Positions 6,237 to 38,591 of a stretch of DNA of 52,223 nt are shown one piece after another (the stretch's first letter is position 1; each line of letters begins with the position of its first letter). This stretch comes from Psammoneis japonica (lineage: Eukaryota): assembly GCA_008632985.1 (NCBI GenBank), contig QPGO01000334.1, forward strand, positions 1 through 52,223. The letters run 5' to 3'. The position numbers and the translations under genes are program-made. The notes beneath the pieces were generated by a model. The model had not been told where the DNA came from and did not search any database. It was given only the letters and a program-made list of their open reading frames with translations.

Positions 6237-6549
6237 TGTCCCTGTTTCAACTGTTTTCTGGGTTGTGATGTAAAAACAACCTTTAGCGTAACAGCAATCT
6301 TATTGAAGAGTTGCCTGACAACCTTTTTCGAACAAGAGAGAGATGAGTTTGATTTTTCGAACAAAAGGTGAGAGGAGAGAGGACAGATGAATGTCTCAAT
6401 AAGTGTTTTCCGAATAGGGCCCTAAATGTTCGGAATGTCTTCGACAATTTGGGGGGCATATTCATAAGTTAAACATACAGCATTGTAGAAATCGAAAGGT
6501 AAACATGACTTTTAGACAAAAATGTCCACGACGGCAATGCCTGAGGTCC

Positions 6550-8010
6550 TCTCCCAAGTCAAGTCTCGGCGCATTCCTCACGCCCACGCTGCGCTCCATT
6601 GTTCCATGCGACCAGCGACACTGTTGATGGCGTCATTTGTTGGCATTTGCAATCTCTTGCTGCCCTTGTGCAGTCCACCTGCATGAACCACTTTTCCTTT
6701 GGATGCAGCAGCAATTGACTTGACTGGCCCCAAATGACAGAGTGCCAGCCAGCCCAGAGCCATGTCCGGAGGGATGAGAGACATGAGCCAGCACAATTGC
6801 AGATCTGCGCAAAAATTCTTTGGACAGCATCAGCTTTCCAGAGATGTTCCCCATGACATCACAGAGACAAGAGGAGGATCTTCCTTGTTCGTCAACATGA
6901 AGTTTGAAGTTTGCATCATGTTGATGATGCTGGCAGTGGCCAGCAGCTTTGGCGCCCTTCGCGACCTGCACAGGTCACGCCGATGTGGCTGACTCTCGCG
7001 GCTGGGAAAAAGATGCTGCCATGAGCTCTGCAGCAATTTCAGCTCCATGCAGAGTGCACGCATTTGCCCATTTGATGACCACAACAAGAGTGAGGATGCA
7101 GCAATGAAAAACGCATTTGCTTTCTCTTTGTGCCAGCACTTTTCAGCTTTCTCAGCTCCATGCAGAGTGCACATGTTCACCTGGTTGACGACCATGACAA
7201 TGCAGCAATGCAAAATGCACTGACCTTCTCTTTGCCATTTTTTTATGCATCTCTTGGAGAGACACTCTCTCTTCTGCTTCAACTCTCCAGAACAGATGAG
7301 GGTCATGACAGAGAGAAGTCGCCACACTGTCACCACAACAGACTTTTTCTGGCTGACATGTGTGGGCTTTTGGATGTGAACCAGCAGCTTGGTTAGAACT
7401 GTCTGGCAAATGAACAAACAATTTGGTGCCACAGAAATCAAGTGTTGATGAGTGCATGGGCACAAACAGATGTCAACAGCCACACTGCTTTGTTCAAGGA
7501 GATGGGCTGCCACCAAAAAGCGCAAACAAGAGAGCTTGCAGAACACCTCCTTTGCTTGTGGCACCTGCTTTGTGAACACATTGGCTTGTTGATCAGCAGC
7601 ACAAGTGTGAACTCAAGTGCAACCATTGATGGCTTCATTGCAAAAGCAGCAGAGTGTGACATTGAAGTGATGCATGCAGAGATGCATCTCAGGCATGTGC
7701 GAAATTTCTGTTGTGGTGGAGTTGGGCTGTCTTCAGACATGTGTGTGCAGTCAGTGCATGACAGGAGTGGGGCTCGCATCAATGTTTCTCTCCTTGAGTT
7801 CTTCCAACAGGCACACAACAGACTTGACATGTGCAAGCCTCAAGAACACCACAAGCTCATCACACAGTTTGTAGTTTGTAATCTTGCCATGGTGACTTGC
7901 TCTGTGAAGGAATGTGCAATGTCTGGGGAGGCACTGATGATGTCAACCCTTTGTCTCTGTGACTCAGCTCAAACTCTGCCACATTTTTCCTCACTTTTTT
8001 TCAGAGGTGA
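6550..8010. other. TpA/CpG-depleted degenerate block; relic of an unidentified coding sequence or TE
   Basis: Near-absence of TA, excess TG/CA, and interrupted protein-like frames on + (7442-8014). No family recognised. Confidence 0.45.
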
Positions 8011-8019
8011 TTGACACCA

Positions 8020-8486
8020 CATGTGTCTGGACCTGCAAAATGATGCAAGTGAGTGCAAAGAAGACAAAACACCCAGCTTGCTTGGTGATTTGGGTAGAGT
8101 GTGGGTGGTGCATTGTGATTGGATTGCCAACACATGGTCTTGCCATCAACCAACAACATTGTGTGGCCACCAGACTGCTGTTGTCACTTGTTCTTTGTCA
8201 GATGCCAGCCAACACAGTGAGCAACCAACAATTGCAAGCCCATGTCTCAACTTGCTCTTTCTGTTTGCACAAGAGGTGCTGGTGTTGGAATGGATTCTGC
8301 ATCCATGGCTGGATTGAACTGAGCAAGGAGGTGGTTGCTTCTCTTGTTGTTTGAGAGCAAATGTGCAGCAAATTGTGTGCAATTGTCAACACCTTCAAAA
8401 TGCACTTTTTCTTGTCCCAGGTTGGAAGTGTGAACAGCCTCTTCAGTTGCACTGGGATTGCAAAGCAAAATGCAAGCAGTTTGGGG

Positions 8487-8520
<34 letters not shown>

Positions 8521-8930
8521 GATGTTGTCATCTCAGAGGATTGTGCCCAAAACTCTTGCTGGGCACTTGTTGGGCAAGTGTGTCACCCAGGAGCATCAAG
8601 GACCAATGGTGAGAGTGTTGATGCCAACAACCACATGGTGGCCAGCAAAAAAGTCAACAGAGGTGCAACAAAAGCCAAAGTGCGCAGTTTGCACATGCCA
8701 ACAGCAAGCACAGGAGTGACATCTGATGGGCAGCACCACTTCTGTTGGTTGGATTCTTTTTGTTGTTGCACATGTGTTTTTTGATTGAACTGTGATCCGC
8801 ACAAGAACACCAGCATGCAAAAAGCTCAAAGAAGCAGACTGAAAGCAGCAGGAAGCCACAAGAGAGAAAGAGCAACTGATGACAGCACAGGCAACATTTG
8901 AGCAGAGGATGACAGAGGATGGTGACAACA
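8020..8930 (-). pseudogene. Hypermutated duplicate of the DUF3110-like locus (parent ~2760-3600)
   Basis: Colinear similarity, e.g. 8229 caattgcaagcccatgtctcaacttg versus 2956 caattgcaagcccatgtctcgacttg. VYILLYNP has become ACILLCNP. Contains frameshifts. Confidence 0.9.
8485..8520 (+). repeat. (GTT)n microsatellite, ~12 units
   Basis: Direct reading. The parent locus has only ~2-3 units at ~3197. Confidence 0.9.
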
Positions 8931-10670
8931 ATGAAACACGAAATTGACATCATGTTGAATTTCCAACTTTTTGTTGGTGTCAGCAGGGGAAACTGCCAAT
9001 GTCACCCAGTGGAGAGGTGTGGGGTGCAGATGGTGCAGTGGGCTGAAACAGCATCCTCACGCAGGAGGTGGAGAGAACAGGTGGGGGTTCTGAAGATGGG
9101 AGCAGCAAGTTGTGCGTGCAGTTTGGCAGATTGTCAGAGAAGTTGGTTGGCAAGGGCCTTGGCAACAACAAACAAGACTGAGGCTCTGAGAAGGCCCCCT
9201 TTTGGGTGGGACCAGAGGCATGGTGAGCAAGGCCAAATTAAGAAGAGGCAATGGGGTGGCAAGTGGTCAACAAAGCTGCAGTGGCAGGAAAAAGGCCTGA
9301 CAGAGAGAGATGGGCATTGGTGCAGGCGCAGCACAGTGTGCGCAGATGGGTGTGTTGTTGGAAAGAGGGTGCTGAATTCCAGGGCAGAGCAAGAGGAGTG
9401 GGAAAGGGATGCTCTTGATTGGCTCCAAAGAGAGGGCAGTGAGCAAAGTGTCTGGGGGCTCTGAGGTGGTTGACGGTGAAGGGCATGAGGTTGGCGCCAT
9501 GGCTTTGTTGAGGGAAGTGATCACAGCAGTGAGCAGTGGCACACTGGGGCTTTTGTGAGCTCCATGGAATTTCTGTTTTGTGTGCTCAGATGGTGTGCCT
9601 TGGTTGTGGAGTCTTGTGCAGGGGCAGGCAAGCCATGAGCTGGAAGTGGAGGAGGAGGTTTGGGAGCGGCAATGGCAATGGCAAGGCTGGGGGTGAGTTT
9701 GACTCCCTCCTGCACTGGCAGTGGGGTGCTTGAGAGTGGCAAGTGTGGTGTGAGGTTGGTGGGTTTGCAATGAGCTGCAGAGGAGCAAGTGCAAAAGCCA
9801 GAGAGAGGACCTGTTGTTTGCAGAAAAATGGCAAAAAGACCATCTCAAGTTGGGTTGGATGAGGCAGTCTTGTGTCCGAGCAGGGGGGCAGCAGCAGAAG
9901 GCGCTTGGCTCAGCCACAGGGGTCAATGGTGCCAGCGCAAGAAGGGCAGGAGATTGGAGTCTGTTGGTTGGTGGATGTTGGAAGGCAGAGTTTGTGTTGG
10001 AGCATTGGTCTGTCTGTGTCTCCCCATTGTCCTGACCCCAACCAGGCTGGAGACCAACAGGTGAGACAAAGTTGGGGTCAGAGCGCAGGGTGGCCACTTT
10101 CAAAATGACCAAATTCACAAGCAGTCTTTGTGCACAAAATGGCGCCCAATTGCTTTTGAAGGCTTTGGGACTTTGTGAAAATGGCTCTTGAAACAAACAC
10201 ATTGCATGATGACTTTTGAGTGCCTCAATCACACTTTGGTTGAGGTCGCTTCTGCGCAAACCACAGTGGTGTGTGGGTTGGCCCTGAAGGTGGACGTGCA
10301 AGAGCTTTTGGCTGTGTTCCCTCCAGCACCTTCTTGAAAATCCCATCAGTGATGGCAACGTTCCTGTTGAGATTGGCAGCAACAGCACGCGGGTTGCGTG
10401 TTGCTTTCCTTTGGCCCAGCATTTGCCAGGCCCAGATGCAATCATGCAGCACTTGTTGATTTCCTTCAACTCATTTGTGCAGTCAGCCCTTGAGAGTTGT
10501 TCAAAAGCATGAAAGAATTGGACCCTGCGCTGGACAATTCTCAAAGAATTGGTGGTTTCCTCTGAGTTCAAAAAAACAACTTGGCCGTTGACACCATTGT
10601 TTTCAAAGTCATTGCACAGACAAACAAACTTCGAAGACCCCAAGAACATTGTGGATGTCCTTCTCTCCAA
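8930..10670. other. TpA-depleted degenerate block of unknown origin
   Basis: Almost no TA. The long minus-strand ORF 9267-10847 has no Tyr and no recognisable domain. Confidence 0.4.
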
Positions 10671-10927
10671 AATTTTTATCGTAACTCCACGTTCACACAG
10701 ACAACGAGACACAGCCGTCCAGCCAGAGAAGTGTCCAATCGCTGAAGACATCGGTCGGTCTTGGGGGGATGCATGGAACGCCGGGCGAGTGAGTGGAACT
10801 TCCGACACACACGAGAGGTTTCCGGGTGCATTCCGACAGGGCCACAAACGGTCGACCGACAGAGCGCGCGCGGTGACTTTTTACTTCTTTCAATTTTTTC
10901 GAAATCATGCATCACGACGCTCGCGGA

Positions 10928-13900
10928 GCGGCCACCGCTGCGTAGAAATGGCATTTTGTACTGTGACGTCATTTTCATGTAGATTCTACGGCAGTACTGA
11001 AAAGCCGCTCCTTCCTTCTTTTTTTGGGGCCGAAATTCAGATCTCCCTCCAACAATTCTCAGTGCAAAAAAGACGTAAGAGTTACGGAACGAAAATGGTG
11101 AGTCGCCGTTCATCGGTGCAAACGTTGCTGCTTGTGTTCTTGGGTCAACATTCGCAATGTTTTGATTGTATCTCATCATTTACTTACATGTCTATCGTTC
11201 TATGTAAAAACATTGCGAATCTTGGCACTTGCAGAGCGGAAAAGACACTTTGTCTGTGCACGATGTTGAGGAACGCTTGCATGCACTCGCGTGTTGTGTA
11301 CAAGACCCAGACCATCATCATGCCTTTATTCCAGGACAGAGATGGTGGCGAGCATCGAATATCAAAGACCCAGACGAAGGAGAGAAGCCATTTTGGGAGC
11401 AGTTGGGCGTTTCAGGAGATGATTTTGAACGGCTCTACGGGCGCAAGTGGATTTCGAAAATCGACAAGCATGAGCATCCGTTCAACTTGTGTCGTCGTCG
11501 AAAGAAGGGACCGGTCCATTACGTAACAGTATCATTGCTACATGAGTTTTCAGATTATGGTGATACAATTACAACACCAGGAGATGAAAATGGCGTCTCC
11601 GATAATCTCGCATACAGGCGGTTGCTGACTGATGTCATCAGAAGAGGTGACCGCGCCAAGGAAGCTCGGGAAGCAGAAAGTGCATCCAAACAAGCCACAA
11701 AGCAAGATGAGGTCGACAACAGCAAACCATCAGCGTCCTTAACCCATCCCATGTCCACCCCGACAGCCCGTCCCAAGGATGATGCACCGACGGAAAAAAC
11801 TGGCGATCGAATTGCTGCCGCGCCCGATGCCGCTCCTACTTTAGTCACGCCCACGTCTTCGGAAGGAACAAGTTCACGACCCATCACTGCTGCCACGGTT
11901 GCAACACCTGACACCACAGCAGTTGCTACAGCAGGTCACAAGGACCCACATGGCTTGGAAGGAGTCCTCACAGCTGACCACAAGGATCCTCAAGACTTGG
12001 AAGGAGTGCTCAGAACGATAAAAGGATTTCGTAAGCTAACTGATGCTAATGATGTTAACAGTTTAGCTCCTACTAAAGCTCTTATCCACATTGGACATGA
12101 GGTTATGAAAATTTTAGAGGAACGTTCCGACGAGAAGGGTATCGTGAAACTCAACCCAAGCACGGGAGGGCGTGGAAGCAAGTGGATGCGAATCCAAGAA
12201 GTCGCGAAGGGCACGTCAAAACGGACAGTACGTCGCCACGCTGCCAAGATAAAGACGTATGTGCAAACAAAAGGGTTGGATAAAGGCTGTACCATCACTG
12301 ATAAAGTGATTGGAAAAGTGCATTCAGAGTGTGCTTGCAAGCCACTCTTTCAGTATAGAAGACACAACAAGATTCTACTCGTACCCGACCCTGAGAAACA
12401 GGGTGAGCTGCGTCAAATGGGAGGGATGACAGAACGCAGGATCATTGCAATGAATGATTTATTTAGTTAATTGACTGGCTTTACATTCTATGAAAGAAAA
12501 AATACTCTCGGGAGGCTTGTTGACGACACAATGCCCGATTTTACTGTCGGGAAACTGAAAGTGAACAACAGCGACGGAAAGGAAACCGAACGGCAGGTAT
12601 TCCAAGTTGAGAGCATCAGTGACATGCTGTGCTCACGAGTAGAGTCTTTGGTTAGGAAAGGCATGCTAATCAAGTCATCTAAACTCACAAGACTCAGCGA
12701 CGACACGCTCATTGTGAGGCTTGGCGGAGACAAGGGCGGCACCTTCATGCAGTTCAAGTTTGGTGCCACGATCATGAACTGTATGGATCCAAACAGTCCT
12801 GACTCATTTGATCTTATTGCGAGCCTTGATGCACCGGACACGTACGAAAACTTAAATAAATTGTTCGTCAAGTGTACGAAAGAGCTGGAGTTTCTTTGTG
12901 ATCTTGAAAGGATTCCCAACATGTGCCTTTTAAGAACAGATGCATCCTGTCCGGGGTCGTTTGTGTGCAATGTTGCTGGGGAAACGAGCGTCGAGGACTG
13001 CTGGGCGAACAAGGAAGTGGTTGAATGTGCTCCTCCAGACCAGCCCAGTCCTGCTGCCCCTGTCACAGCAACCGAGAGCACCAAAGTGCAGGTCCTTTGT
13101 GTTGATGACCACGCTTGGGGGCTACGCTTTGTCAATGCAGAAACAAGCGAAACGGTGGAAATGGCCATTCGCAAAAGAATGAAGCGCACCGAGATTGATG
13201 AAACCACTCTAGAAACTCACACGCTGCATGCGGTTCTTTGCGGCGACATCCAATTCCTCAACAACGCCCTGGGTTTACAAGGATGCAGTGCATCCTTTCC
13301 TTGCTTTGTTTGCAATGTCAGCTTGAAAGCACTGCAGTCGAGATCCAAGAGCATGGCCGAGGGCACATCGCTGCGAACGGCAGCTGAAGCCAAGCAACAG
13401 CTCGAGAACGTCCAAAAGCACAAAACAAAGAAGAAACAAAAACAAGCTGCCAAGGTGAACGGATCAGTTGTCAACCCACCTCTGATTCCAATTGACTTCA
13501 GTCGCGTGCTTCTCTCAACCTTGCACATTGTTCTCGGCATCACCAAGAAACTGTGGGACAACCCAGTCGACAGCGTTCAGAAGATCGACCACGGAAGTTC
13601 GATTCAACACCAGAAAACACTTGAGGTTCGAGATGTGCCATTGGGCCATGTTGCCGAGTTGAAACAGCAAGAGCAAGTCGAAAGCAAGAATCTTGAGAAT
13701 GCCGAGGAGAAAAGAGCCAAAGCTTGGGAATTGCTCCGAGCCGCTCGGAGTCAAGTTCCACCCAGCTTGGAAGCAGAAGCCTCTCTGTTGCAAGCACACA
13801 GAGAAGCATGTGAATCTGTCAGAGTGCACTCACAAATCAAAAGCAAGCGTGACAAGACAGTCCGCCCTGCTCTTGAAGGTGTTCTTGCCGACATGAACAC

Positions 13901-14916
13901 TTGCCTGAAACAACGACGTGGAAAATGTGAGAGCGTGCTAGAATCCGTCATTTGCGAATCACCCATCAATGCCAAGCACAACCCGTTCTATGGCGGATCA
14001 TTTGATGGAAACAATTGCTTCAGATTAATGCACAACCATGGTTCATTGTTCAGTGCCCTGCGAGATGCATCCGAAGATGAGGCGGAAGACGTGAGAGCGA
14101 CTCTGGAAAAGACGGCGAGCACACACGAGGAGATTTTTGGCGCACACGCAAAGCTCTTGCCAAGGTTTAGATCCACTGACGTGTCAAATGAATGTGACAT
14201 TGAGGAGTTCAAGGAGGATCGCGAGATTTTCTGGGAGCTGTACAACGGGTCCGTGACCATTGAGCTTCATCAACTGATCGAGCACGCGGTGGAAATGTTG
14301 GAAAAGTGTGGAACGACAGGTTTCTTCACTGAAGATGCATTGGAATCTATCCATGCAACAGTCAATGCCTTGGCTCAACGATATGCAGCCCTGGATAACA
14401 AGCGCCGTTGTACACAAGTCACTCGGGTTCTTGCGGCGAGGAAGAAGATGAAGATGAACGATGACTTGGTCAAAAAGGAAAAGCACGGCGAGTCGGGCAA
14501 AAAGAGGAAGAGAGTCCAAGGGAAAGCAAGCAGCACAAGTAAGAAAGTGACAGAAGAAAATATTGACACTCAACTTGTTCGTGCACTTACCGATTTCTTG
14601 GATAACGGGGTCGAGAGGACGCAGGAGGAAGACGAAAACCCGGTTGTCAAGTGCAAAGAGTTCGAGGTGGTGCCTTGCATGAAATGCTTCGACACCTTGG
14701 ACTCTGATGTGCATGTGCCATCAATATTGATGCCACTGCACAATGTCTTAGCTCATGTGGAGGTACAGGATAGAGCAGAGACGCAGAACAAGAGGCAGAG
14801 ACGGTAACATCTTCGTCATCGGGGAGATGCTGTTTGTCGTTCTGCGTTGAGCGTGTTATTTGGCGGTAATAATAATAGGTCATGAGTTATTTTGCAAAAA
14901 TCACAGCGGTGGCCGC
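10928..14916 (+). mobile_element. RAG1/Transib/Chapaev-like cut-and-paste DNA transposon, ~4 kb
   Basis: A perfect 13-bp inverted repeat, GCGGCCACCGCTG (10928-10940) and CAGCGGTGGCCGC (14904-14916), brackets a RAG1-core-like transposase. Confidence 0.75.
11095..14807 (+). pseudogene. RAG1-core-like DDE transposase (~1190 codons) with one in-frame TAA at 12468-12470
   Basis: Motifs GGDKGG, CGDIQFL..ALGLQG.SASFPCFVC, TLHIVLG, FDGNNC and LHQLIEH...GTTGFFTEDALESIH parallel the RAG1/Transib core. ORFs 11229-12470 and 12471-14807 share one frame. The likely start is ATG 11095 with a GTGAGT..TTGCAG intron at 11098-11234 (inferred). Confidence 0.8.
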
Positions 14917-15003
14917 GCGAACGTGGCCCAAAAGCGTCGTGGCATCGCATCACACATCACACATCCCTGCCAACAACTCCAACAACAAAACAATACATAC
15001 ATT

Positions 15004-15681
15004 ATGTCTTTGATTTTGAATTACCACGATGCCGTCTTGTACGACTCGGATTTGGCCTTGTTGGAATCTCGAACCGCTTGGCTCAATGACGCTTGCATTC
15101 ACTTTGAAATGACGCGATTGCAACAACAATCGGTTGTTTTATTCTTGGATCCCAGCGTCATTTCCTTTCTGATGCATCAGTGTGAGGACCAAGATGATAT
15201 GCAAGACTTTTGTAATGGCTACAATAATTTTAAAGGAATTCAGAAACTCATGGTACCCATTAATGACGGGCATGCGGCAGCTGGTCTCCAAGAAAATTGT
15301 GGAACTCATTGGAGTTTGCTAGTGATACAACTCCATGACTCCTCGAAGAAGAGTAGTAATTGTTTTCATTTTGATTCCATTCGAGGAAATAATTCGAATG
15401 CAGCTCGAGTCGTGGCAGCCAAGCTGCTTTTGGTGATTCTTGGAACTACAAAAGATGTAAACGTGGTAGAATACAAAACACCGCAACAAGTAAATGGTTA
15501 CGATTGTGGAATTCACATGCTGGCGGCGGCAGAGCTTCTGTCGTCTGTTGAGGATTCTAGTTTGTATGAAAGTACACTAGAGGATGCAATTAGTACAGGA
15601 GATTTTGCCACCCGGTACCGACAAAAAATGGCCTGGGATGTAAAACAGCTGGCTGCGGAATACAGGAAAACTAAAACATAG
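15004..15681 (+). CDS. SENP8: NEDD8-specific protease (SENP8/DEN1, Ulp1/C48 family)
   Basis: LNYHDAVLY.SDL.LL...WLND, catalytic HWSLL, FDS and QQ.NGYDCG. The start is MSLILNY at 15004. Confidence 0.85.
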   Translation: MSLILNYHDAVLYDSDLALLESRTAWLNDACIHFEMTRLQQQSVVLFLDPSVISFLMHQCEDQDDMQDFCNGYNNFKGIQKLMVPINDGHAAAGLQENCGTHWSLLVIQLHDSSKKSSNCFHFDSIRGNNSNAARVVAAKLLLVILGTTKDVNVVEYKTPQQVNGYDCGIHMLAAAELLSSVEDSSLYESTLEDAISTGDFATRYRQKMAWDVKQLAAEYRKTKT

Positions 15682-18436: not shown

Positions 18437-19109
18437 TCTGATGGAAAGGATAAATGTAAGCCGTATATGAGTTATAAGTTGGACAGTTCTGAGACGTGAG
18501 ATGTCTGCCTTGGCATGTAGTAAAGGAGTGGTGTAGTATTATGAGCTTTGTAATGAGAGTTCATCCGTGTGAATGCTGTTGTGTGAGTGACTATTCGTTG
18601 ATCGATCGTGCTCAACGCGGAAGAAACAAGATTCGGAACCACGTAGCTGTGCTACGTAGGAATTAGTATGTCCGAGCCGCGCGATCGGTACTCAATCGTG
18701 AACGGATGCGATTGGCGGCGAGGAGCGCGAGCAGATGGTCTGGTATGTTCTAACGTAGAATCCTACATAGATACTGACACACACGATCGAATCACGTGTG
18801 TGGCCGTCAGCTGGCTTTCAAACGAACCAATCAGATTGTTTGAAATATTTATGTCAAAAACGAATCATACATTTTCTTCACTTTTGAGTATATTTCAATG
18901 TAGCCGTTGTTGCGGGACTGACGAAAAGGCAAACACGATTCGGGAGCAAACGCGCAACGGACACGCGAAATTTGAAATTTGAGTCATGCCACCCAAGAAA
19001 CAAAAAGTGCAAAATGCACAAGTGGCTGATCCACTCTCCATCGTGGGTCCATTTTTCCAACGTGCATGATCTCCTGCCTTGAACTTCTTCCTAGACAACA
19101 ACCAACACC

Positions 19110-20135
19110 ACCAAGAAAGCATTTGACCTCAAGTGCGGGCGGCCAAAGCACAGTCCTTGACAACGTCATGGCTGGAAGCACTTCTCAGATGCACCAAGGT
19201 CGCTCTGGGGTGGTGGGCACAAAATTCACCCTGCCCTCTGCAGGGCCTTGCCATTGTTGCCAAAAGCAAAGACTCAAAGGACCAACCCTGGATCTGGCCC
19301 AAGGGGGGGGGGTCTGAGCTTGCGCAGAGAAGAGGCTCGGCAATGAGGCACCACCACAGCATTGAGCATCATGACGGGAGCCTGTTGTTGAACAAATTGC
19401 CAAATCAAGAGGATGTTCCAGCTGATCCCCTCAATTCTCAGGCCAATGTCACCAGCAAAAGGCAACTCCTGCAGCTCTGCTTTGTTGACAAGTGAGCGCG
19501 TCATGCCCCATGAAGAAAAAACCAAGCTGAAATGAACTTTGACAGAGCTCTTGATTGGTCCAGTCATGCTGATCTGAGCATTTTTGTCTCAACAAAGCTG
19601 AAAAAGTGAGAAGAGGCTGGAGGAGCCTTTGAGCATGAGCACTTCAGGGGATGACCCTTGCTGCATTCACAGGTCGCAACGAAGGTTTGGGTTGTGCCAC
19701 AAATCCAAGGTCCAGGAACAAATTCCAAGGGATCAGTTGGCCATGCTCTCAGGCCATCATCTCTGTCTAAACTTGGGTGCAAAGAGGATCCACTTTTTTG
19801 ACTTGCGCACAATCTTTTGTTCCCAGATGACAACCATCACCAAATGAAAAGTGTTTGACCTCAAATTGCTGCTGCAAAGTGCAGCAGTTGAGAGTCTCAT
19901 GGCTTGATGTGTTCAGCAGATGCACCAAGGTTGCACCAGAGAGGTGGGCACAAAATTCACCCCACCCTCTCTGCAGGGTCTTGCCATTGTTGCCAAGAGT
20001 TAAGACTCGAAGGACCAACCCTGGATCTGTCCCAGAGGGGGGGGGGGGGCAATCCAAGCTTGCAGAGGCTTGGCAATGAGACACCACCATGGCATTGTGC
20101 ATCATGACAGGAGCCTGTTGTTGAACAAATTGCTG
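19110..20135 (+). repeat. Diverged direct repeat pair (~290 bp; ~19110-19400 and ~19840-20135)
   Basis: Both copies share cagatgcaccaagg, gtgggcacaaaattcacc, aaggaccaaccctggatctg, a poly-G run and gagcctgttgttgaacaaattgc. Confidence 0.85.
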
Positions 20136-20151
20136 TGTCAAGAGGCTGTTT

Positions 20152-20652
20152 TTCCTTGCTCACATCGCTGGCAACTCTCGCGGCCACTTGGTTGAAGTGT
20201 GAGTGCACACACCCCCAGTGAAAACTCTTGCCAGCAGTGGCCACCTGTGCAAACATGCAGAAACAAATGACTGGAACAACCCTCCAGCAGGGAACTGACT
20301 TTTGAGTTTACATTTTGCAAGTGTGCCACAAAAAGGGGTCCAAAAGCAGAGCAATGTCTGTGCAGTGCTGCCTCATTTGACGAGCAGGCTGCTTCATTCC
20401 CGCTCACTCCTTTTCAGCCCAAGAAGCAAGGGCAGATTGCATTGACAACCTTTTTTTTGTTGGCACTGCCTTGCTCACATCACCAGCAACTCCCACGGCC
20501 ACTTGGTTGAAGTGTGAGTGCACCCCCCAGTGAGAACTCTTGCCAGCAGTGGCCACCTGCATGAACATGCAGAAACAAACCACTGGAACAACCCTCCAGG
20601 GAACTGACTCTTGAGTTTGCAATGTGCAAGTGTGCTGCAAAAAGGGGTCCAG
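20152..20652 (+). repeat. Diverged direct repeat pair (~185 bp; ~20152-20342 and ~20468-20652)
   Basis: Both copies share ccttgctcacatc, ggccacttggttgaagtgtgagtgcac and actcttgccagcagtggccacctg. Confidence 0.85.
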
Positions 20653-21545
20653 AACTCAGTTTGGTTTTGCCCATTTGGGAATTTCCCAAAATGGCAATGG
20701 CAAGGGGGGGTTGCCGTGCCCTTTGGGGGAACACCCAGGAAACGAGGGGGTGGCTCAGCAGGAAGGGACAACTGAAAGGGCTCGGAGAGGGGAACAAAAA
20801 ACAAGTGCCTTGTGGCAGTTCCCATTTGAGTTGATTTAGGCGGGTGTGCTTTTTTCACAGTCCAGCCATGCCGGAGGCCACACCCTGCCGGGCGACGACC
20901 ATGACGGATGCATCGACAAATCAACACAAAGCGGCCCCTTGTGGCCAAGCAAGGGAAGAACAAACTTTGCCATTAAATCATGCACAGAAGTTGAAGGGAA
21001 AATGGGTGGAAGAGCACAATGACCCCTCGCTGCTGTTTGAACAGCAGATGAGCATGTCTGTGCAGATGCCTGCTGTTGTTCTTCTTGTGAGCCGAGTGGC
21101 TCAAAAGCAAACTGCATCATGATGTGTCACACGCAGAGCTGAGAGCACACAAAATCATGTGCAACAAACCAAAATCTTGCTCAAATCCTGTCACTTGCCA
21201 TCAGCACAAAGAAGCACACAAAACAGTCTTCCAAGCACAAAATCTGCTCCTGTCTTGATCGACACCATGTCAGAGGCCCATCAACCACAAAAACATGAAC
21301 ACAATGACCAGAGCATTGACTCCAGTCATTCCAGTGCTTGTGTTGTGTCATTGTCAATGTGCGAGATTGGATTTGGCATCACAAAATCTTGTTCAAACAT
21401 GGTGCGGCAAATGCAATCTGGCCGCCATGTTCCCTCTGACTCTTGAAAGAGGAAAACTCAGGTGTGGCTGAGCCTCGTTGGGTGGCAGCTGCAGGTGGCT
21501 GTGCAAATTTTAAGGTTGAATTGAACTGAATTGCGCTTTTTTTAA

Positions 21546-21952
21546 GGGTGGTCGGTTGCCACTTTTTTCAGCTCGAATTCGGCCAAACATCTCGTGTTTT
21601 GCATCATTTTTCCTGAATTTCACAGTGCCTCACCGTGGTGAAAAAACGGCAAGCCACAAGTCTGTGATGGAGGTGGTCTGTGCACCAACTCTCATTTATT
21701 TTATGTTCTTTGTGCATCAAAGATCTTGTGCACATGAAAAGTTTGTGCACAACATGCTGCATTTTTGAGAAATGTTGATAATTGTCATCATTGTCGTGCT
21801 TCGATCACAGTGCTTGGTGTTCTCGTTTTTGTGCACGATCGGCGATCGGGTGTGAATGCCAAGAATAATTTTTGCATTCAAAAATGAACTCTTTTGAACA
21901 TTCTTGTTCAAATGCCACTGCAATTTTTGGGTGAACGTGGGGCTGACCCCCC
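21546..21952. mobile_element. Possible non-autonomous TTAA-targeting (Kolobok-like) MITE, ~407 bp
   Basis: Left end is TTAA|GGGTGGTCGGTTGCCACTTT. The reverse complement of the right end is TTGA|GGGGGGTCAGCCCCACGTT (imperfect TIR). The right flank TCAA equals TTAA after TA->CA. Confidence 0.4.
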
Positions 21953-22196
21953 TCAAATGGCTTGATTTGCGAAAAAGTGTCTTGGAACATGCATGGGAGG
22001 GAGTTGGAGGTTGGAGCTTGTGCAAGAAATTATGTGGAAATGTGCAAGGTGCTTGCTGCATGGATTTCTGCGCAACACAAAACAATTTCCATCCACGCAG
22101 ACCTCTGATCTCCCGGGAGTGCCACGATGCATGCGATGGCATGCATCACACATGCGCTGCACTGTGCGGCTGCTGAACATCATTTCAGCAATCAAG

Positions 22197-24095
22197 ATGA
22201 AGATGATGTCAAACGATGTTGAAATTGCCTCTGAAAATGTTGCAGAGAAGATGGCAAACAAAGCTGAGGAGCTGGTTCTTTTGCAGGACAATGCATTTGT
22301 GACCCGGTTCAACGTCAAACAAAAGGAATGCTCTCTGACACTGGAGGAGAAAAAGGCAAGAAAAGACAGGAACTGAGCCCGCAGAGAATTTGTTGGGAAA
22401 CACCACGAAGTTTTTGTGCAACATGTGCGTGCACTCCAATGTCATGTTCAAGAAGACATGGCATCATCGACCATCTTGCCACCAATGTGCAATGCTGGCA
22501 GTGCAACAACAAGTCAACGAAGCAAGTTCAATGAACAACGAAGCAAGAGATGCCATCCGTCTGCCATTGAAAAGTGGGGAGATTTCACGAATTTTTTAGA
22601 AGAGAAGTTTGATGCTGCCAGACCCCTTCCACTGCCGATGACTGCACCACTGTTTAAAACCGTTGTTGATTGGATGACAATGATGAACAAAATCACGGAG
22701 CAATCCTTCGTCAATCCATTTGTGTTTGTGCACTGTTTTGTCAAGCTGGTCTCATGTGTCTGCCCTTCCAAGTGGATTCTGAAGAACGGGGCCGCTTCCC
22801 AACAATTGGACGACCCGATGAAGCCTGCTGCATGAAACCAACAGGAAATGACCCTGTTTGAGCTCAGAAAACAGCAGTTTTTGAAGCAAAGGCATTGCAC
22901 AACATGTTGCTTCCGAATGACTTTGACATGTTGAAGCAGTGTCATGAGGAGGCGGTCAAGAAGCAAGCGACAGAAAGGAGAAAGGAGCAGTCCAAGAGCT
23001 GGCATCAAATCTGCCACCTGCTTTCCCAGGAATTGGCATGCATGATCAACAATGGTGTTCAACATGGAGCTCTTTTTTGTGCTTCAAAAGTGCACTTCAT
23101 CCACCTTGATGGACCAGGCAGAGAAGTTCACAGGGTGGAAATTGCTGATGCGCACATTGCTGGTCAGAAAGACTTTCTTCGTGCTTGGGTGTGTGTGATT
23201 TGTCTCGCCGACAAAAGTCCAGCACTGGCCAATGGAAATCATGGCCTTGAAATGTCTCCCTGCACTGGCATCAGATGGCTTAAGGAGACCCCAATTTGTG
23301 AAGCTGAAGCATCGGAATCAGTGATTGAATGTCAAGAGCAAACTGGACATCATCCCAATGACAATGGCTCTTCTGTTGGTGATGGAAACAGTGACCACGA
23401 ACTGTCTGGAGGAAGCCGAAGTGACAAGAGCAGCAGATCTAGCCCTGCATCCAAGAAACCAAGACACAAATCTCCTGAGCACCGCATGAAGAACGAAGGC
23501 AGTCAGTTGACTTTGATGTCATACACCGCCTCAGTTGGTTCAGTCGAGGTCTGCTGAGGATGAGGAAAGGAGCACAATGTCACTCCCACTCACCCCACCA
23601 GACTGCTCCTTCTTTGATTCGTTTTCTTTCGAAGACCAATTTGTGCATCCAGTCGATTTTTGAACTTTGAGGATCGGCCGGTTGTTGGGGGTCGGAAGGA
23701 ACGGAGACGTCTTTGAGAGCGACTGTGGTGAAGAGAAGGTTGCGGTAAAGCAGTTTGATCTGTCAAAGAATTTTGAAAGTTACGAGAATGAGGTCAAGGC
23801 GTACGTGCGGCTGAGAAAGGCATGGGGTGAGCTTGTCCCTACTCCAAAATTCATTGCGCAGTCACCATCTGGCATGGTCAGGTTCCTTGGTCTACAGAAG
23901 GGGAGGTGTCCCGAAGAGGAAGAGTTTGATGGGCACTTTGGCACCGTGATTGACAAGCCACGGAGTGACTATAACTTCCAACCTCTTGATTATTCTCATG
24001 GTCGCAACTGCATTGTTGTAGATGAAGACAATGGAACAAAGAAGTTGCTCGTTATCGATCTAGAATTTTGGAAAGACACTGTGAAGATTGAGTAG
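22197..24095 (+). pseudogene. Disrupted nuclease-like plus protein-kinase gene (Crinkler/CR-effector-like architecture)
   Basis: The C-terminal kinase has LG.GRNGDVF, VAVKQFD, YENEV.AY and VIDLE. Upstream fragments (VFEAK; WHQICH..Q..ACMINNGVQHGAL) resemble a PD-(D/E)xK REase-type domain. Multiple stops and frameshifts; the 5' part is TA-depleted. Confidence 0.55.
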
Positions 24096-25619: not shown

Positions 25620-27194
25620 TTTGGAGAGGTTTCAATTACAGTCTAGTATACCTCAGCAACAGCGATGATAAATCCATCATCCAGTCTTTTTGGCAATCCT
25701 TTCATGGTCGTTGCCGCGGAAAAGCAAAAGGGAAAAGCAGAAAAAAGGTGGGGATTGATTCGACCGTTGGGCGCGCACAAAATTTTGATGACGACGAGCG
25801 TTGAAAGAGCGAGCACGCAAGAGCAAAAAATGATGGCACGCACGAATTTTGTGCGCCATGAGCACACCAAATGCAATGGGGCAGCAAGTTCCACTTCTTC
25901 CTTGCCATTCAACCACGTCCATGCCACTGGCAATGGGGAAGCCATCCAAGCCTTCTTCATCTGGTGGGGTCATGGGGAAGCCATCCCAGCCTTCATCTGG
26001 TGGGGTCACCCAAACACTCCTCTGTGTTTGCCTGGACAAACTCGCGCCCATCTCCTTGTTTTGACCCGTGTCCCTTCTTGTCAGTGATGTCATGCACAAC
26101 ACATCATGGACAAATCATCAACACATCTTCTTCTCTCATTTTGCTTGCTGCAGGAGACACTGTGTTTTCCACAGGCAAATGCAGAGAGTGCAGCCAGGTG
26201 GGCATGCTTGCCTCTTGAAAGAAAGAGCTGCAAAATGCTGGCGCTCTTGTTGTTTGCAGTGGAGACAACTCTGGCCTGCATCATTCTTGGTGTGATTCAC
26301 ATTGAGATTGTGTTCTCTGGCTGGCAATGAGCCATTGTTGCTGAAGAAGTCATTGTGAAAATTGTTGCTGGTCAAAGAGACACACCACCGCAGATGTCTT
26401 GAAACACAAGACTTTGGACCCAGCTTCTGTTTGCTCTCATTCTGAATTTCTTTGACATGTGCCAGCTTCATTGGCTTGCTGCTGTCAAGATGGAAGAAAC
26501 CTCTTTCTGTCAAGTTGAGCCTCTCGATGCCTCTCATTTCTTTGACCACTCTCCTTTCAACACCAGTGCAGTTGGGGCAATGTCCCCCTTTTGTTGGGAG
26601 CTCCTTCCAACACACCCCACAAGATGATGGAGAGCACATTTCTTTGCAAGTCATGTCAGCATTGGGTCATCATGCATCAGAGCTGTGTGCTGTGTGCAAA
26701 ACACATGGTGCAGCAGCTGCACCTTAAAGGTCCTGACCAGCCCAACCATGGTGGCTTTTAGGCAGTCATTTTTAACAGAAATCGTGGCATGTCATGCTGG
26801 AGCAACCGCTCTCTTCTTGACTCCAGGTTGACATCGAGGGAAAAGCTGCCATGTGCTGTCCCCGCTCACCACCCATTGCATCATGTGAGAGGGGTCTCAG
26901 CAGTTTGCCGCACACACTGCTTTGCCCCTTTTGATTTAAACCAGTCGACTCAAATGTGGCATGCACAAAGACATGAAAGCACAACATGAAGGCCAACGGG
27001 CTGTGAGGAAGCCCAAAAGCCAAGGGCTTCAATCTGTGTGTGACAGATGAAAAAGGACATCTGTTCATTTTGATGAGCCACTTTGTGGGTTGAGCATGTG
27101 TGTTGGCTGCCTCAATGGCATTTCTGCAGGAGAAGATTTGCGTGTGAAATGAGAGACTCTTCCATTGGCTGAAAGAACCGGGAAGAATGCGGCG

Positions 27195-28304
27195 CTGAGC
27201 TTTCACCACAGTGTTGTTTGCCACAATCTGTCCAGCCATTTTGACATGATTGAGAAATGTTTCCGTTGCCTGCTTGCAATGCTCTTCTCGGTGTTGCCGC
27301 TTGTCAATTCTGACAACGTTTCTTTTGTCATTGGAACTCCATTCGAAACACCGGTCGAAATCAACATGCCAAAGTTTTCCCATGCTGTCAACCAATGCTT
27401 GAAAGTCCCGCACAACACAACTTACATCCTGGACAAGTTCCAAGGTTTTGTTTGTCTTGTGCCTAAAGTTACGAAGAAAGGATTCACTGTCGCTCGACGC
27501 GGCCACAATTTCATGCAAATGCCCCTTTGCGTGTTTGCATTTGTTGGAGGTACAATCGAGGAGCAGTGACGGTTGAGGAGCCATTTTTGCTCTGTGCACG
27601 GCAGCCATTCCTTTGGCGCAGCAGCCTTTCTTGATCATTTTCTGTTGGGACTCTCTCATCAAAACTCTGTTCATCTCAGATGCATCACTCTCGCTTGGAT
27701 TTGTAGACTGAACTGGACCAAATAGAGTGGACATCGAGTGCTCCTTTTCAACCATTCTCGCAAGATCCCAAGCTTTTTCTCCACTCGCAACAAAAAAGTT
27801 TAGTTGTTCTTGTGTGACCAAATGACCAAAGCGGGGACTTCCGCCCTTTTCGTGGAAAAAACACTTCTCCACCCCACAGCTTGCCGGAACTGTCAGATTC
27901 AAGTTCTCCAATGCAAATTTCTTTGGAGAAGAATTGTCCGAGTCGGACATGAGTTTGACGTCCTTTTCATTTCTTGTGCCTTCATTTTGTCTTTTTTGTT
28001 CATGTTTTTCAATGTCGCCTCTGTGCATGTCTATTTGCTCTTGACCTCCTTGATTGTCCTGCGTGTTGCTTCCATGTTTTTCGCGTGTGTCTGACAAAGA
28101 TTGCCTTTTTGATGCGGGCGGAAGATCTTTCGTGGCAGGATCTTCCCTGATGGACTTGGACAGTGTTGCATGTAGAGACGGTGAGTGCAATGACAGAGGA
28201 GTTGAGTTGATGTTGCTCAGAGACACAAAGGAAACTTGGAGAATCAGTTGAATGGTGCTGCATCCAACGATGAACACGACATGGACCAGTCGACGACTCA
28301 GCAT
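27195..28304 (-). pseudogene. Copy B of the triplicated gene, hypermutated (all Tyr lost; stop read-through extends the ORF to 26772)
   Basis: Colinear with copies A and C. All 14 Tyr of copy A are His or Cys here, and TAG has become CAG at the old stop. Confidence 0.85.
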
Positions 28305-29884
28305 TTTGGAGAGGTTTCAATTACAGTCTAGCACACCTCAGCACAACAACAACGACAAATCCATCATCCAGTCTTTTTGGCAATCCTTTCATGGCCGTTG
28401 CCACGGAAAAGCAAAAGGGAAAAAAGGTGGGGATTTGACCATTGGGCACGCACAAAATTTAAAATTTTGATGAGCTTGGAGACGAGCGTTGAATGAGCAC
28501 GCAAGCAAGCAAAAAATGATGACACGCACGAATTGTGCGCTGTGAGCACACCAAATGCAATGGGGCAGCAAGTTCCACTTCCTTGCCATTCAACCATGTC
28601 CATGCCACTGGCAATGGGGAAGCCATCCAAGCCTTCTTCATCTGGCGGGGTCGTGGGGAAGCCATCCAAGCCTTCATCTGGTGAGGTCATGCAAACACTC
28701 CTCTGTGCTTGCCTGAACAAACTCGCGTTCATCTCCTTGTTTTGAGCCATGCCCCTTCTTGTCAGTGATGTTGTGCACAACACATCATGGACAAATCTTC
28801 AACACATCTTCTTCTCCCATTTTGCTTGCTGCAGGAGACAGGCCACTGTGTTTTCCACAGGCAAATGCAGAGTGCAGCCAGGTGTGGGCATGCTTGCCTC
28901 TTGAAAAGAAGAGCTTCAAAATGCTGGTGCTCTTGTTGTTTGCAGTGGAGACAACTCTGGCCTGCATCATTCTTGGTGTGACTCACATTGAGAACATGTT
29001 CTCTTGCTCTCAATGAGCCATTGTTGCTGAAGAAGCTGTTGTGAAAATTGTTGCTGGTCAAAGACACACCACCGTGGATGTCTTAAAACACGAGACTTTG
29101 GACCCATCTTCTGTTTGCTCTCATTCTGAATTTCTTTGACACATGCCAGCTTCATTGGCTTGCTGCTGTCAAGATGGAAGAAACCTCTCTCTGTCAAGTT
29201 GAGCCTCTCAATTTCTCTCATTTTTTTGACCACTCTCCTTTCAACAGCAGCACAGTTGGGGCAATGTCTCCCTTTTGTTGGGAGCTCCTTCCAACACACA
29301 CACACCACACAAGATGATGGAGAGCACATTTTTTTGCAAGTTGTGTCAGCATTGGGTCATCATGCATCAGAGCTGTGAGCTGTGTGCAAAACACATGGCA
29401 CAGCAGCCACACCTTAAATGCCTTGACTGGCACAACCATGGTGACTTTTGGGCAGTTGTTTTTAACAGAAATCGTGGCATGTCGTGCTGGAGCAACCACT
29501 CTCTTTTTAACTCCAGGTTGATGTTGAGGGTGAGCCTGCCACATGCTGTCCCTGCTCTCCACCCATTGCATCATGCAAGAGGGTTCTCTGCAGTTTGCCA
29601 CACACACTGCTTCACCCCTTTTGTTTTGAACCAGTCGACTCAAAAGTGGAACACAGAAAGACATGAAAGCACATTATGAAGGTTAACCAGCTGTGAGGAA
29701 GCCCAAAAGCCAAGGGCTTCAAACTGTGTGTGACAAAGGACAAAGGACATCTGTTCATTTTGATGAGCTGCTTTGTGGGTTGAGCGCGTGTAATGGCTGC
29801 CTCAATGGCATTTCTATAGGAGAAGATTTGCATGTGCAATGAGAGACTCTTCCATTGGCTGAAAGAACCAGGAAGAATACGGCA

Positions 29885-30994: not shown

Positions 30995-31075
30995 TTTATT
31001 TCCTGTCACAGTTGAGCAACAACGATGATAAATCCATCCTCCAGTCTCTTGGTAATCTTCAAGGTCGTTGTAGCG

Positions 31076-31102
31076 GATGATGATGATGATGATGATGATG
31101 AT
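31076..31102 (+). repeat. (GAT)n microsatellite, ~9 units
   Basis: Direct reading. Confidence 0.9.
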
Positions 31103-33524: not shown

Positions 33525-33834
33525 GCGCACTGTGCTTGGAGAACAAGCACAAATGAAAGCAGAGTGGACAACAAAAAGTGGACATTGTGAGACAAATTTT
33601 GCTCTGCAATTTTTGGTTTCTCTGAATGAATTCTCTCAATGGCCCAAAGCATTTGTGCTGCTTCCACAGACTGAAAGGCTTTTCAGAGAATGTGATTGTG
33701 ACAGCAGATTGTCTGGGTGTGACTGACACTGCCACCTTGTGTGTCAACATCATCAAGGGATCTTGTTTGCAATTCTCAACATCCAACAATTGTGGACATG
33801 TGCACAACTTTCTTGCTCAACAACACATGTTGCA
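33525..33834 (-). repeat. 3' LTR of the Gypsy element
   Basis: Matches ~38200-38591 (ttctcaatggcccaaag, ccttgtgtgtcaacat, aactttcttgct). Begins TGCAACA on the minus strand just after the integrase end. The left boundary is approximate. Confidence 0.75.
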
Positions 33835-38199: not shown

Positions 38200-38591
38200 A
38201 ATGCACAGTGCTTGAAGAACAAGTGCAAACAGAAGTGGAGCGGATCGCACAAAAAGTGGAAATTGTGAGATTAAAATTTGCTCTGTGATTTTAGATTTCT
38301 CTGAACAAGTTCTCAATGGCCCAAAGTGTTTGCACTGCTTCTGCGCACTGAAAGTCTTTTAGAAAATGTTGTCATGACAACAGATTGTCCAGATGCAATT
38401 GACGTTGATGCCTTGTGTGTCAACATTGTCAAGGGATTGCATCATTTGCAATTTTTGACATCTCACAAACTCTGTGTGATCAATCTGACCTTCATGTGCA
38501 TGTCCACAATTGTGGTGCAATTGACACATGTGACATTGCACAATTGTCAGCATGTGCAAAACTTTCTTGCTTGACAACACATTGTGTTGCA
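38200..38591 (-). repeat. 5' LTR of the Gypsy element
   Basis: Diverged copy of 33525-33834 with an internal indel. Begins TGCAACA on the minus strand. Confidence 0.75.

Follow-up and report, generated by a model that had tools for sequence, protein, structure and literature searches.

How can a stretch of a transposon gene lose all of its TA dinucleotides and keep its CG dinucleotides? The question is raised by a patch within the window (the whole 52,223-nucleotide stretch of Psammoneis japonica DNA that was analysed), for which a sequence-only reading had counted no TA and about 29 CG at 13278-13938. The recount agrees: these 661 bases hold 0 TA and 29 CG, and base composition predicts 38.9 TA. 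Targeted A:T mutation in nuclear DNA is almost unknown, and the sole report found is, going by its available text, a preprint from 2026 that deals with an unrelated alga (Mettrop et al., bioRxiv 10.64898/2026.01.13.699255). A gene with its TA loss finished and its CG loss not yet started is a clean natural experiment that sets the TA process apart from methylation-driven decay, and it gives both the sequence of events and how far in space the TA process extends. The features discussed below are collected in Table 1.

Table 1. Features of the window, in window coordinates.
Feature	Position	Strand	Basis or remark
Block, TA and CG lost	7250..10680		Holds decayed copy 8229-8901 of gene 2956-3568
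Chapaev-like (DUF1280) transposase frame, 1200 codons; probably a pseudogene	11208..14807	+	Pfam DUF1280, 52 bits against a cut-off of 25
In-frame TAA stop of the transposase frame	12468..12470	+	Opposite E/K/R/K in homologues when read as X
Zone of partial TA->TG/CA damage around the patch	12870..14360		Strong TA-reversion sites
TA-free, CG-normal patch	13276..13939		0 TA and 29 CG; saturated centre of TA->TG/CA conversion
Ulp1-type protease ORF, directly downstream of the transposase on the same strand	14851..15681	+	Pfam Peptidase_C48, E = 1.3e-13
Block, TA gone completely, CG partly to mostly	19100..23500		Bin map
Tandem unit A	24452..27137		Gene part 24452-25668 normal; 3' part from 25669 TA-free
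TA-free, CG-dense block margin	25669..25854		Last TA at 25669; 15 CG to 25854, few beyond
Tandem unit B, hypermutated	27138..29827		Polarised against A and C
Tandem unit C (gene part), normal	29828..31077		Three-copy comparison
Largest block, TA and CG lost	31280..42000		Dead LTR-type retroelement; decayed kinase-gene copy
TA-free block	44452..45895		Dense CG kept in first 165 bases
TA-free block (lone TA at 48247)	48092..49764		Dense CG kept in first ~163 bases

The transposase label of the host gene rests on two points, namely a match to the Pfam family DUF1280 (PF06918), where the frame scores above the curated gathering cut-off and six of the seven alignment members match, and the equation of DUF1280 with the Chapaev transposases, in a clade with RAG1, in the available text of Majorek et al. 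2014 (PMC3985635). Over its whole length the frame can be aligned with homologues of 1176-1322 aa (36-41% identity). The accessible literature describes the Chapaev family from animals, whereas the present copy is from a diatom-like genome and its relatives are metagenomic. The nearest feature-neighbours of the transposase include RAG1 RNase-H-domain clusters (scores 0.91-0.95), which is a lead only. A profile search of solved structures with the transposase returned 0 matches, and among 25 short inverted pairs checked as terminal inverted repeats none convincingly brackets the element. Around the downstream protease ORF, TA is near normal (observed/expected 0.75 in 15001-16000).

The gene is probably no longer functional as it stands. 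Its first 181 codons contain no ATG, and it carries an in-frame TAA that neither TA nor CG conversion explains. At columns that are unanimous among the homologues, the transposase agrees in 115 of 136. The 21 disagreements comprise 4 attributable to TA conversion, 1 to CG conversion, 4 to other transitions and 12 to no single transition; since only 4 of them are due to TA conversion, most of the divergence is ordinary. The suggestion that the element is caught in mid-inactivation is fair but puts the stage too early, given the stop codon and the missing ATG, yet most unanimous columns are kept. The reading frame stays open because TA->TG/CA never turns a sense codon into a stop. The missense outcomes to be expected of TA conversion are Tyr to Cys or His, Leu to Pro or Ser, Ile to Thr and Lys to Glu.

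The full TA-free gap measures 663 bases. When positions for the 79 TA of the gene were drawn uniformly along its 3600 bases, a gap of at least this length had a P of 1e-5 (200,000 trials). The 5' half of the gene is indeed abundant in TA, as the sequence-only reading had noted, with 27 counted in 12000-12500. The flanks of the patch within the gene are not pristine, having 20-22 TA per kb versus 41-73 in the normal 1-kb bins of the window, so that the patch is the saturated core of a broader, partly hit zone; all but 4 of the 24 strong TA-reversion sites (those that gain at least 3 in score, see below) fall within 12873-14359. The opening 425 bases of the patch hold more CA than TG (48 versus 30, P = 0.054), which is only a hint of strand-coherent tracts. 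A second TA-free, CG-rich site had been placed at about 25680-26050; it was found to be longer, with no TA over 25669-26725, CG being dense in 25709-25854 and sparser beyond.

Judged from homologous DNA, the TA-free state of the patch is derived and not native, since the corresponding DNA of all four metagenome homologues carries 19-33 TA and 3-10 Tyr codons, an ancestral TA count estimated from relatives of just 36-40% identity. The same loci hold 27-39 CG, and the patch has no Tyr codon. A native composition or a selection against TA is ruled out by the TA of these four loci, and with it the objection that homologues might be TA-free here by nature. The residues tell the same story. In a reversion test, TG and CA were changed back to TA or CG and scored by the fit to six homologues, with a gain of at least 3 counted as restoring a conserved residue. 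TA-reversions did so at 6/56 sites in the patch, 10/80 in the 3' flank and 8/169 in the 5' flank. The controls gave 1/79, 2/88 and 2/170 for CG-reversions and 2/271, 3/374 and 19/828 for other transitions in the same three segments (Fisher P = 3e-4 for the patch and 5e-6 for the 3' flank). TA-reversions thus restore conserved residues about 10 times as often as the controls, and CG-reversions give no such excess. The residue conversions that had been read from the sequence are borne out: the P of DNPVD stands where 6/6 homologues have L, that of DVPLGH where they show L/V/I/M/I, and the C of NTCLK where they show F/Y/Y/F/F. In GKCE, C likewise replaces Y/Y/F/Y/G. For EKCG (TGT at 14307) the homologues, with F/Y/Y/Y/Y, favour the proposed conversion, but the site belongs to the 3' flank and not to the patch.

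The direction of the change is established by the tandem repeat downstream, where copy B can be polarised against copies A and C. The gene parts of A and C, about 89% alike, were spared and that of B was hit; in the 3' part, A and B were each mutated independently. Copy B has lost 31 of 38 ancestral TA (15 to TG, 16 to CA) and 18 of 42 ancestral CG, all to TG or CA. Its 87 private changes include 33 from TA to TG (17) or CA (16) and 19 from CG to TG or CA, whereas none of 42 private changes of copy A lies at TA or CG, and copy C has 1 at TA and 10 at CG among 79. The dinucleotide specificity is equally plain, as A-to-G and T-to-C changes outside TpA number 14 in copy B versus 17 in A and 23 in C, that is, background. 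General GC-biased conversion is ruled out by the same three-copy alignment. The TG and CA outcomes are interleaved along copy B (18 runs versus 16.5 expected, P = 0.77), and the runs test revealed no strand-coherent tracts there. Sorted by 3' neighbour, the hit rates in this small sample were 5/15 for A, 7/18 for C, 4/16 for G and 15/27 for T.

Across the window, 180 of 520 bins are normal and sit over host genes, 174 have lost both TA and CG, 54 have lost TA with CG intermediate, 28 have lost TA with CG normal, and none has lost CG with TA normal. About half of the window consists of blocks with both dinucleotides lost, in which TA observed/expected is 0.01-0.1 and CG is depleted too. At six block edges TA ends abruptly and CG remains dense for about 120-190 bases further inward, thinning gradually. 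In these margins the damage extends 120-190 bases or more into neighbouring DNA, and one duplicated host gene copy was also hit. Older duplicate pairs repeat the direction seen in the tandem units, with 0-1 changes running the other way: the decayed gene copy in the block at 7250 keeps 0/22 TA and 0/32 CG, and the decayed copy 40265-41103 of the kinase gene 47148-47978 keeps 0/22 TA and 0/35 CG. Sites at which one repeat copy has TG and the other CA number 19, 25 (in the pair 33400-33900 / 38080-38600) and 8, versus 0-2 for control dinucleotide pairs; the conversions therefore arose independently after duplication. The identified targets are the DUF1280 transposase, an RT_RNaseH remnant in the largest block (35067-35462, minus strand, E = 1.6e-10) and host-gene copies. 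A viral origin is not among them, a statement that covers the identified targets alone, as most block ORFs have no Pfam match: the scan took in 113 of 116 stop-to-stop ORFs of at least 90 aa in the mutated blocks, leaving out three in 27153-28320, and 1 of the 113 had any match.

Does the loss of TA run together with that of CG? In the patch, CG density is 43.7 per kb, compared with flanks at about 50 per kb, and CG loss is at background level, by the count, by the range in the homologues and by the single restoring CG-reversion. If the loss ratio of copy B applied to the patch, the probability of finding at least 29 CG would be 2e-5 to 0.047, a range that spans the assumptions made, with 0.0014 at mid values. 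A fixed TA:CG loss ratio is rejected. As the bin map has it, the two losses are uncoupled and nested, with 28 TA-lost, CG-normal bins and 0 of the reverse kind. The misfit of the copy B ratio together with background CG loss in the patch points to separate processes with separate causes, and the central proposal of the sequence-only reading, that TpA conversion is distinct from CpG decay, is supported. Its further claim that TA loss is the faster or earlier process fits the 28 versus 0 bins; a wider-reaching process fits them equally. In copy B, TA and CG loss advance together, and a partial coupling through shared targeting may exist.

We hold it probable, with good confidence, that the patch is real DNA made by in-place mutation of TpA to TpG or CpA, independently of CpG decay. 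An alternative that we consider unlikely is that both losses stem from a single machinery, such as a deaminase able to attack A in TpA as well as C in CpG within the same domains, whose CG activity varies with methylation or access, giving two outputs from one system. The confinement of CG loss to TA-free domains (0/520 bins TA-normal and CG-lost) would suit it, as would the joint losses of copy B and the ADAT2 enzymes editing A and C in DNA that Mettrop et al. cite in the available text. It has to contend with complete TA loss at flank-level CG in the patch and with the rejected ratio of copy B. Moreover, the neighbours of the survivors differ (7-fold enrichment of TTAA for TA, 3.8-fold enrichment of GCGC for CG), and inward from the block edges CG thins gradually, whereas TA stops abruptly.

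As to chemistry, enzymatic deamination of A in TpA on DNA is most likely, by analogy with what has been proposed for the chlorarachniophyte Bigelowiella natans. That the thymine is changed instead is somewhat more doubtful again than a single machinery: an oxidised or otherwise modified thymine at TpA, of the 5-hydroxymethyl- or 5-formyl-uracil type, would pair with G and give T-to-C, with the same TG/CA outcome over both strands. Such thymine derivatives are mutagenic, and sequence cannot separate the two chemistries, TA being self-complementary and the outcomes in copy B being 17 versus 16. The window itself gives no counter-evidence; the only experimental precedent, in its available text, favours adenine deamination, from candidate genes alone.

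It is very unlikely that an older paralogue with no TA left donated the patch through gene conversion. In favour of this, the patch has sharp ends, and contigs of sequencing run X1 include paralogous pieces of the element, about 80-85% alike and in some cases internally deleted. Where paralogue pieces overlap the gene, though, they differ mainly by CG-to-CA/TG (e.g., 13743 and 14062-14190), and a CG-depleted donor would import CG loss, so the 29 CG of the patch argue against such an origin. TA damage also fades into both flanks, as in-place mutation would give. An artefact of sequencing or assembly, with modified bases misread as TG or CA, is less probable still and can nearly be set aside. 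A run X1 contig of exact 31-letter words (3838 bases, word depth 33.8) equals 11196-15033 with 0 differences, which suggests accurate reads, but X1, the sole run holding the patch (which lies outside the coverage of runs X2 and X3), may be the source of the assembly and so does not independently prove the absence of a platform artefact. Two-strand misreading of a symmetric site should produce some CG, whereas the blocks are CG-depleted, and single sites read TG in one repeat copy and CA in another. That edited RNA was copied back into DNA appears unlikely, since tandem gene copies, unique margins and a DNA transposon are among the targets and the repeat copies diverged after duplication.

In-place TpA mutation, the favoured reading, would involve a process that rewrites TpA to TpG or CpA (A:T to G:C transitions) on both strands, directed at transposon DNA, dead retroelements and duplicated gene pieces within sharply bounded domains. 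The targeting would follow chromatin state. CpG decay (CG to TG/CA) is seen only in the interiors of the TA-free domains, where slow deamination of methylated CpG would be the simplest account, methylation having a presumed role in CG loss. The transposase would represent the TA-only stage, with its 663-base saturated core, a partly hit zone of about 1.5 kb and CG at flank level. A broader and distinctly tentative reading, to which we give well below even weight, is that diatoms and chlorarachniophytes share a chromatin-guided DNA adenine deaminase defence that erases TpA. Such a defence may leave patches of nucleosome to kilobase size, may precede DNA methylation, work without it and reach roughly one nucleosome further, may prefer TA followed by C or T, and may disable genes purely by missense, stop codons never being created. 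The opening step would then be caught in the transposase patch, and the end state in the blocks with both dinucleotides lost. Predictions of the TA process itself include unmethylated TA-only margins, a preferred context of TA followed by C or T, and no new stop codons. Half of such a genome would yield long false ORFs, free of Tyr and rich in Cys and His, which would skew gene prediction, repeat dating and composition estimates.

Among known systems, repeat-induced point mutation (RIP) of Neurospora and other ascomycetes proceeds by C-to-T changes, enriches TpA and creates stop codons. Dense transitions in repeated or mobile DNA, sharp domains, some spill into adjacent DNA and the disabling of transposons are common to both. 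The direction is opposite, because here TpA is erased, G+C rises and stops are impossible; the TA enrichment of a RIP-type C:G-to-T:A process is not seen in blocks as TA-poor as these. RIP mutates all copies of a duplicated sequence; in the three-copy repeat the gene part of only one copy was hit, yet the 3' parts of two copies were. RIP is mentioned in the Discussion of the preprint of Mettrop et al. (bioRxiv 10.64898/2026.01.13.699255). Decay of 5-methylcytosine at CpG would account for the CG to TG/CA loss in block interiors (0/35 and 0/32 CG kept), and methylation in another diatom is, in the available text, predominantly CpG and on repeats (PMC5124317). It cannot alter A:T pairs and therefore gives no account of TA loss, and within error it has not begun in the patch. 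The literature search on diatoms found no report of TpA-directed hypermutation.

The closest precedent, as far as its available text goes, is the TpA-only hypermutation of B. natans (bioRxiv 10.64898/2026.01.13.699255), where integrated giant-virus and virophage DNA is affected and mutation-accumulation lines show TpA-only A-to-G and T-to-C de novo mutations, in some lines only, at a rate about 1000-fold above that of the genome. The present case is read from sequence patterns. Further differences lie in the host, a chlorarachniophyte versus a diatom-like stramenopile (DUF6824 protein clusters are found most often in Bacillariophyta); in the targets, viral there, while those identified here comprise a DNA transposon, the remains of an LTR element and pieces of duplicated host genes; and in the extent, TA observed/expected being 0.45 in the virus-derived region of B. 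natans and at saturation in the present blocks. CpG loss is nested in TA-free domains here, and the term 'CpG' occurs 0 times in the available text of the preprint. In B. natans, nearly all changes are A-to-G or T-to-C, all on TpA, giving TpG or CpA by strand, restricted to bounded regions of non-host-like DNA, and TA-depleted, CA+TG-enriched clusters elsewhere in its genome include transposase and reverse-transcriptase genes. The A-to-G/T-to-C excess (33/87 in copy B), the restriction to TpA and the bounded regions are all found here, so that the window carries the same signature as B. natans, at saturation, in a diatom-like genome.

Within the DUF1280 transposase frame, positions 13278 to 13938 (661 bases) hold 0 TA and 29 CG, which bears out the count made in the sequence-only reading; from base composition, 38.9 TA are expected. 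The entire TA-free gap, here called the patch, runs from 13276 to 13939 and contains 0 Tyr codons. If the 79 TA of the gene are placed randomly across its 3600 bases, a gap of at least 663 has P = 1e-5. The same reading had described the 5′ half of the gene as TA-rich and pointed to a second TA-free site with CG. Both descriptions hold, with 27 TA in 12000–12500 and 0 TA in 25669–26725, where CG is dense across the initial 185 bases. From 13276 to 13700, its opening 425 bases, the patch has 48 CA and 30 TG, and in its remainder 21 of each; the missense conversions inferred along the patch are, in order, four of the CA type and thereafter mainly TG. The CA excess (P = 0.054) hints at strand-coherent sub-tracts.

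The TA-free state of the patch is not native. The matching DNA of four homologous loci (L001–L004) carries 19–33 TA in every case (observed/expected 0.52–0.73), together with 27–39 CG and 3–10 Tyr codons. In addition, each TG or CA of the gene was changed back and scored as a success if the mean BLOSUM62 fit to six homologous proteins rose by at least 3, the denominators being scored nonsynonymous sites. Reversion to TA raised the fit at 6/56 sites in the patch, 10/80 in the 3′ flank and 8/169 in the 5′ flank. The control reversions to CG did so at 1/79, 2/88 and 2/170, and other transitions at 2/271, 3/374 and 19/828, respectively (Fisher test against pooled controls, P = 3e-4, 5e-6 and 0.057). 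Among the successful sites are a P where 6/6 homologues have L and a C opposite Y/F, in agreement with the earlier proposal that such residues are conversions. Since 20 of the 24 strong sites fall within 12873–14359, a zone of ~1.5 kb is partly hit, and the patch forms its saturated centre. The share of TA conversion in the divergence of the gene is nevertheless limited and cautions against over-reading: of 136 columns where at least four homologues are unanimous, the transposase agrees at 115, and the 21 differing columns comprise 4 single TA conversions, 1 CG conversion, 4 other transitions and 12 changes that no single transition explains.

The patch is a single case of a pattern spanning about half of the window. 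In the TA-depleted blocks, TA observed/expected is 0.01–0.2; in most of them CG is at 0.02–0.5, and TG and CA rise to 1.5–2.2. The normal parts carry genes for a Ras-family GTPase, a DUF6824 protein, an EcKL/APH-type kinase and a DUF3110 protein. Among Atlas clusters, those of DUF6824 proteins occur most often in Bacillariophyta, so the genome probably belongs to a diatom. DNA without TA offers no TAA or TAG, so the blocks contain open frames as long as 537 aa. Only 1 of 113 block ORFs scanned matched a protein family, and gene predictors would be misled by these false ORFs. A dead LTR-type retroelement lies at 33400–38600, with an RT_RNaseH remnant at 35067–35462 (−) and a repeat pair (33527–33789 and 38203–38468) that is ~75% alike with 25 TG-versus-CA discordant sites.

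Coordinates of the features discussed (positions in the window)
Feature	Position	Strand	Remark
Transposase frame, 1200 codons	11208–14807	+	Pfam DUF1280, 52 bits vs cut-off 25
In-frame stop TAA	12468–12470	+	opposite E/K/R in homologues
Ulp1-type protease ORF	14851–15681		downstream of transposase; TA near-normal
TA-depleted blocks	~7.0–10.7, 19–23.5, 25.7–29.4, 31.3–42, 44.5–45.9, 48.2–49.8 kb
CG-bearing TA-free margins	6513–6631, 10680–10882, 18901–19061, 25669–25854, 44452–44617, 48092–48255
False ORF in block, 537 aa	9267–10880	−
False ORF in block	26772–28316	−
Tandem triple repeat, copy A	24452–27137		unit ~2.69 kb
Tandem triple repeat, copy B	27138–29827
Tandem triple repeat, copy C	29828–31077		gene part

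The direction of change can be read from the tandem triple repeat, whose unit carries a gene without a Pfam match (ORF 24510–25631 (−), 373 aa). Hypermutation affects the middle copy B, and the gene copies on either side of it, A and C, are spared despite ~89% likeness. Polarised at sites where A and C agree, copy B has lost 31 of 38 TA (15 to TG, 16 to CA) and 18 of 42 CG; its 87 private changes include 33 TA and 19 CG conversions. No strand bias is evident in copy B. None of the 42 private changes of copy A is of either kind, and the 79 of copy C include 1 TA and 10 CG conversions. A general A:T-to-G:C drive is rejected by the A-to-G and T-to-C changes outside TpA, which are fewer in B (14) than in A (17) and C (23). 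Two older host-gene duplicates in blocks have gone to completion: the copy at 40265–41103 keeps 0/22 TA and 0/35 CG of its partner at 47148–47978, and that at 8229–8901 keeps 0/22 and 0/32 relative to 2956–3568, with 0–1 reverse-direction changes in both pairs. Furthermore, three doubly mutated repeat pairs show 19, 25 and 8 TG-versus-CA discordant sites, compared with 0–2 for control dinucleotide pairs. Such discordance requires that the same TA or CG was converted independently after duplication, and mutation therefore occurred in place. What these comparisons show is a transition process specific to TpA, active in place on both strands and within bounded domains.

Loss of TA is separable from loss of CG. 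The patch retains 43.7 CG per kb against 49.7 and 50.7 in its flanks, and its CG-reversion signal equals background. Sites in copy B received on average 1.69 hits if TA and 0.56 if CG; were this ratio fixed, at most 12–21 CG would be predicted in the patch instead of the 29 observed (P = 2e-5 to 0.047 across assumed starting counts, 0.0014 at mid values). Across 520 overlapping bins of the window, both dinucleotides are normal in 180 and lost in 174; a further 54 are TA-lost and CG-intermediate, 28 TA-lost and CG-normal, and 84 intermediate or mixed; 0 of 520 are TA-normal and CG-lost. At six block edges TA halts abruptly (last TA at 6513, 18901, 25669, 44452 and 48092, first TA on the far side at 10882), and CG stays dense for 120–190 bases past the TA boundary before thinning gradually. 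TA loss is therefore either faster or further-reaching than CG loss and can happen alone. The earlier view of TpA conversion as a separate process, faster or earlier than CpG decay, is thus supported by the patch, the copy B ratio and the nested bins. The overshoot of the TA-free state, ~120–190 bases, is about the size of a nucleosome, and several margins are CG-dense immediately upstream of the closest intact ORF.

The survivors also have a strong context bias. Compared with 905 TA in normal parts (19.5 kb), the 69 surviving TA in blocks (25.6 kb) are enriched 7-fold in TTAA and 3-fold in CTAA/TTAG; ATAT and GTAC have 0 survivors, and ATAC/GTAT stands at 0.11. The ten context ratios agree with a multiplicative model applied per strand, where conversion is easiest for TA with C or T next to it on the 3′ side and hardest for TA with A there; copy B has too few polarised events to confirm such a preference. 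Among 98 surviving CG in both-lost blocks (17.4 kb), GCGC is enriched 3.8-fold and CCGG is absent (0, versus 3.2% in normal DNA), a pattern unlike that of surviving TA.

Over its full length, the transposase frame can be aligned with six relatives, found in metagenomes and elsewhere (28–41% identity); three of them are 1176–1322 aa long. Its first 181 codons contain no ATG. Under the genetic code, TA to TG or CA never makes a sense codon a stop, hence the frame stays open. The accessible text of Majorek et al. (2014, PMC3985635) treats DUF1280 as identical to the Chapaev transposases, puts it in the same clade as RAG1, and gives animals as the source of the family. DUF1280/Chapaev-like proteins of 1176–1322 aa are present in a diatom-like genome and in metagenome contigs (L001–L004 and the proteins P0001–P0006). 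RAG1 RNase-H clusters among the Atlas neighbours of the transposase are a lead only; a profile search of solved structures gave 0 matches, and a search for terminal inverted repeats around the element gave none convincing. Contigs of a sequencing run, X1, carry paralogous fragments (~80–85% likeness, some internally deleted), so the element is multicopy. Word depth in X1 contigs rises to 500–1100 at 11000–11170 and 14841–15007, at both ends of the transposase region, and this pile-up points to short high-copy repeats on either side of the gene. One X1 contig of 3838 bases, built from exact words (mean depth 33.8), has 0 differences from 11196–15033. The match would favour accurate reads, but the assembly was possibly made from X1 itself, so the run is no independent check.

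For the loss of CG inside blocks, methyl-CpG deamination would be the simplest explanation; in another diatom, methylation is described as mainly at CpG and located on repeats, according to the available part of PMC5124317. For TA, a full-text search of largely non-subscription literature turned up no account of such TA-erasing mutation from a diatom. A process of this kind has been described once before, in the unrelated alga Bigelowiella natans. As far as the accessible part of that preprint goes (Mettrop et al., bioRxiv 10.64898/2026.01.13.699255), mutation-accumulation lines had 231 mutations in a pair of virus-derived regions, 230 of them A-to-G/T-to-C, all on TpA and at ~1000 times the genome rate, and a DNA adenine deaminase was proposed, with an ADAT2 homologue as candidate. 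A less likely alternative, a modified thymine mispairing with G, would give an identical sequence outcome. The words 'CpG', 'diatom' and 'stramenopile' have 0 occurrences in the preprint; what is added here is that the TA-erasing process is separable from CpG decay and nested around it. The TpA hypermutation of B. natans is the closest precedent of the process in the window.
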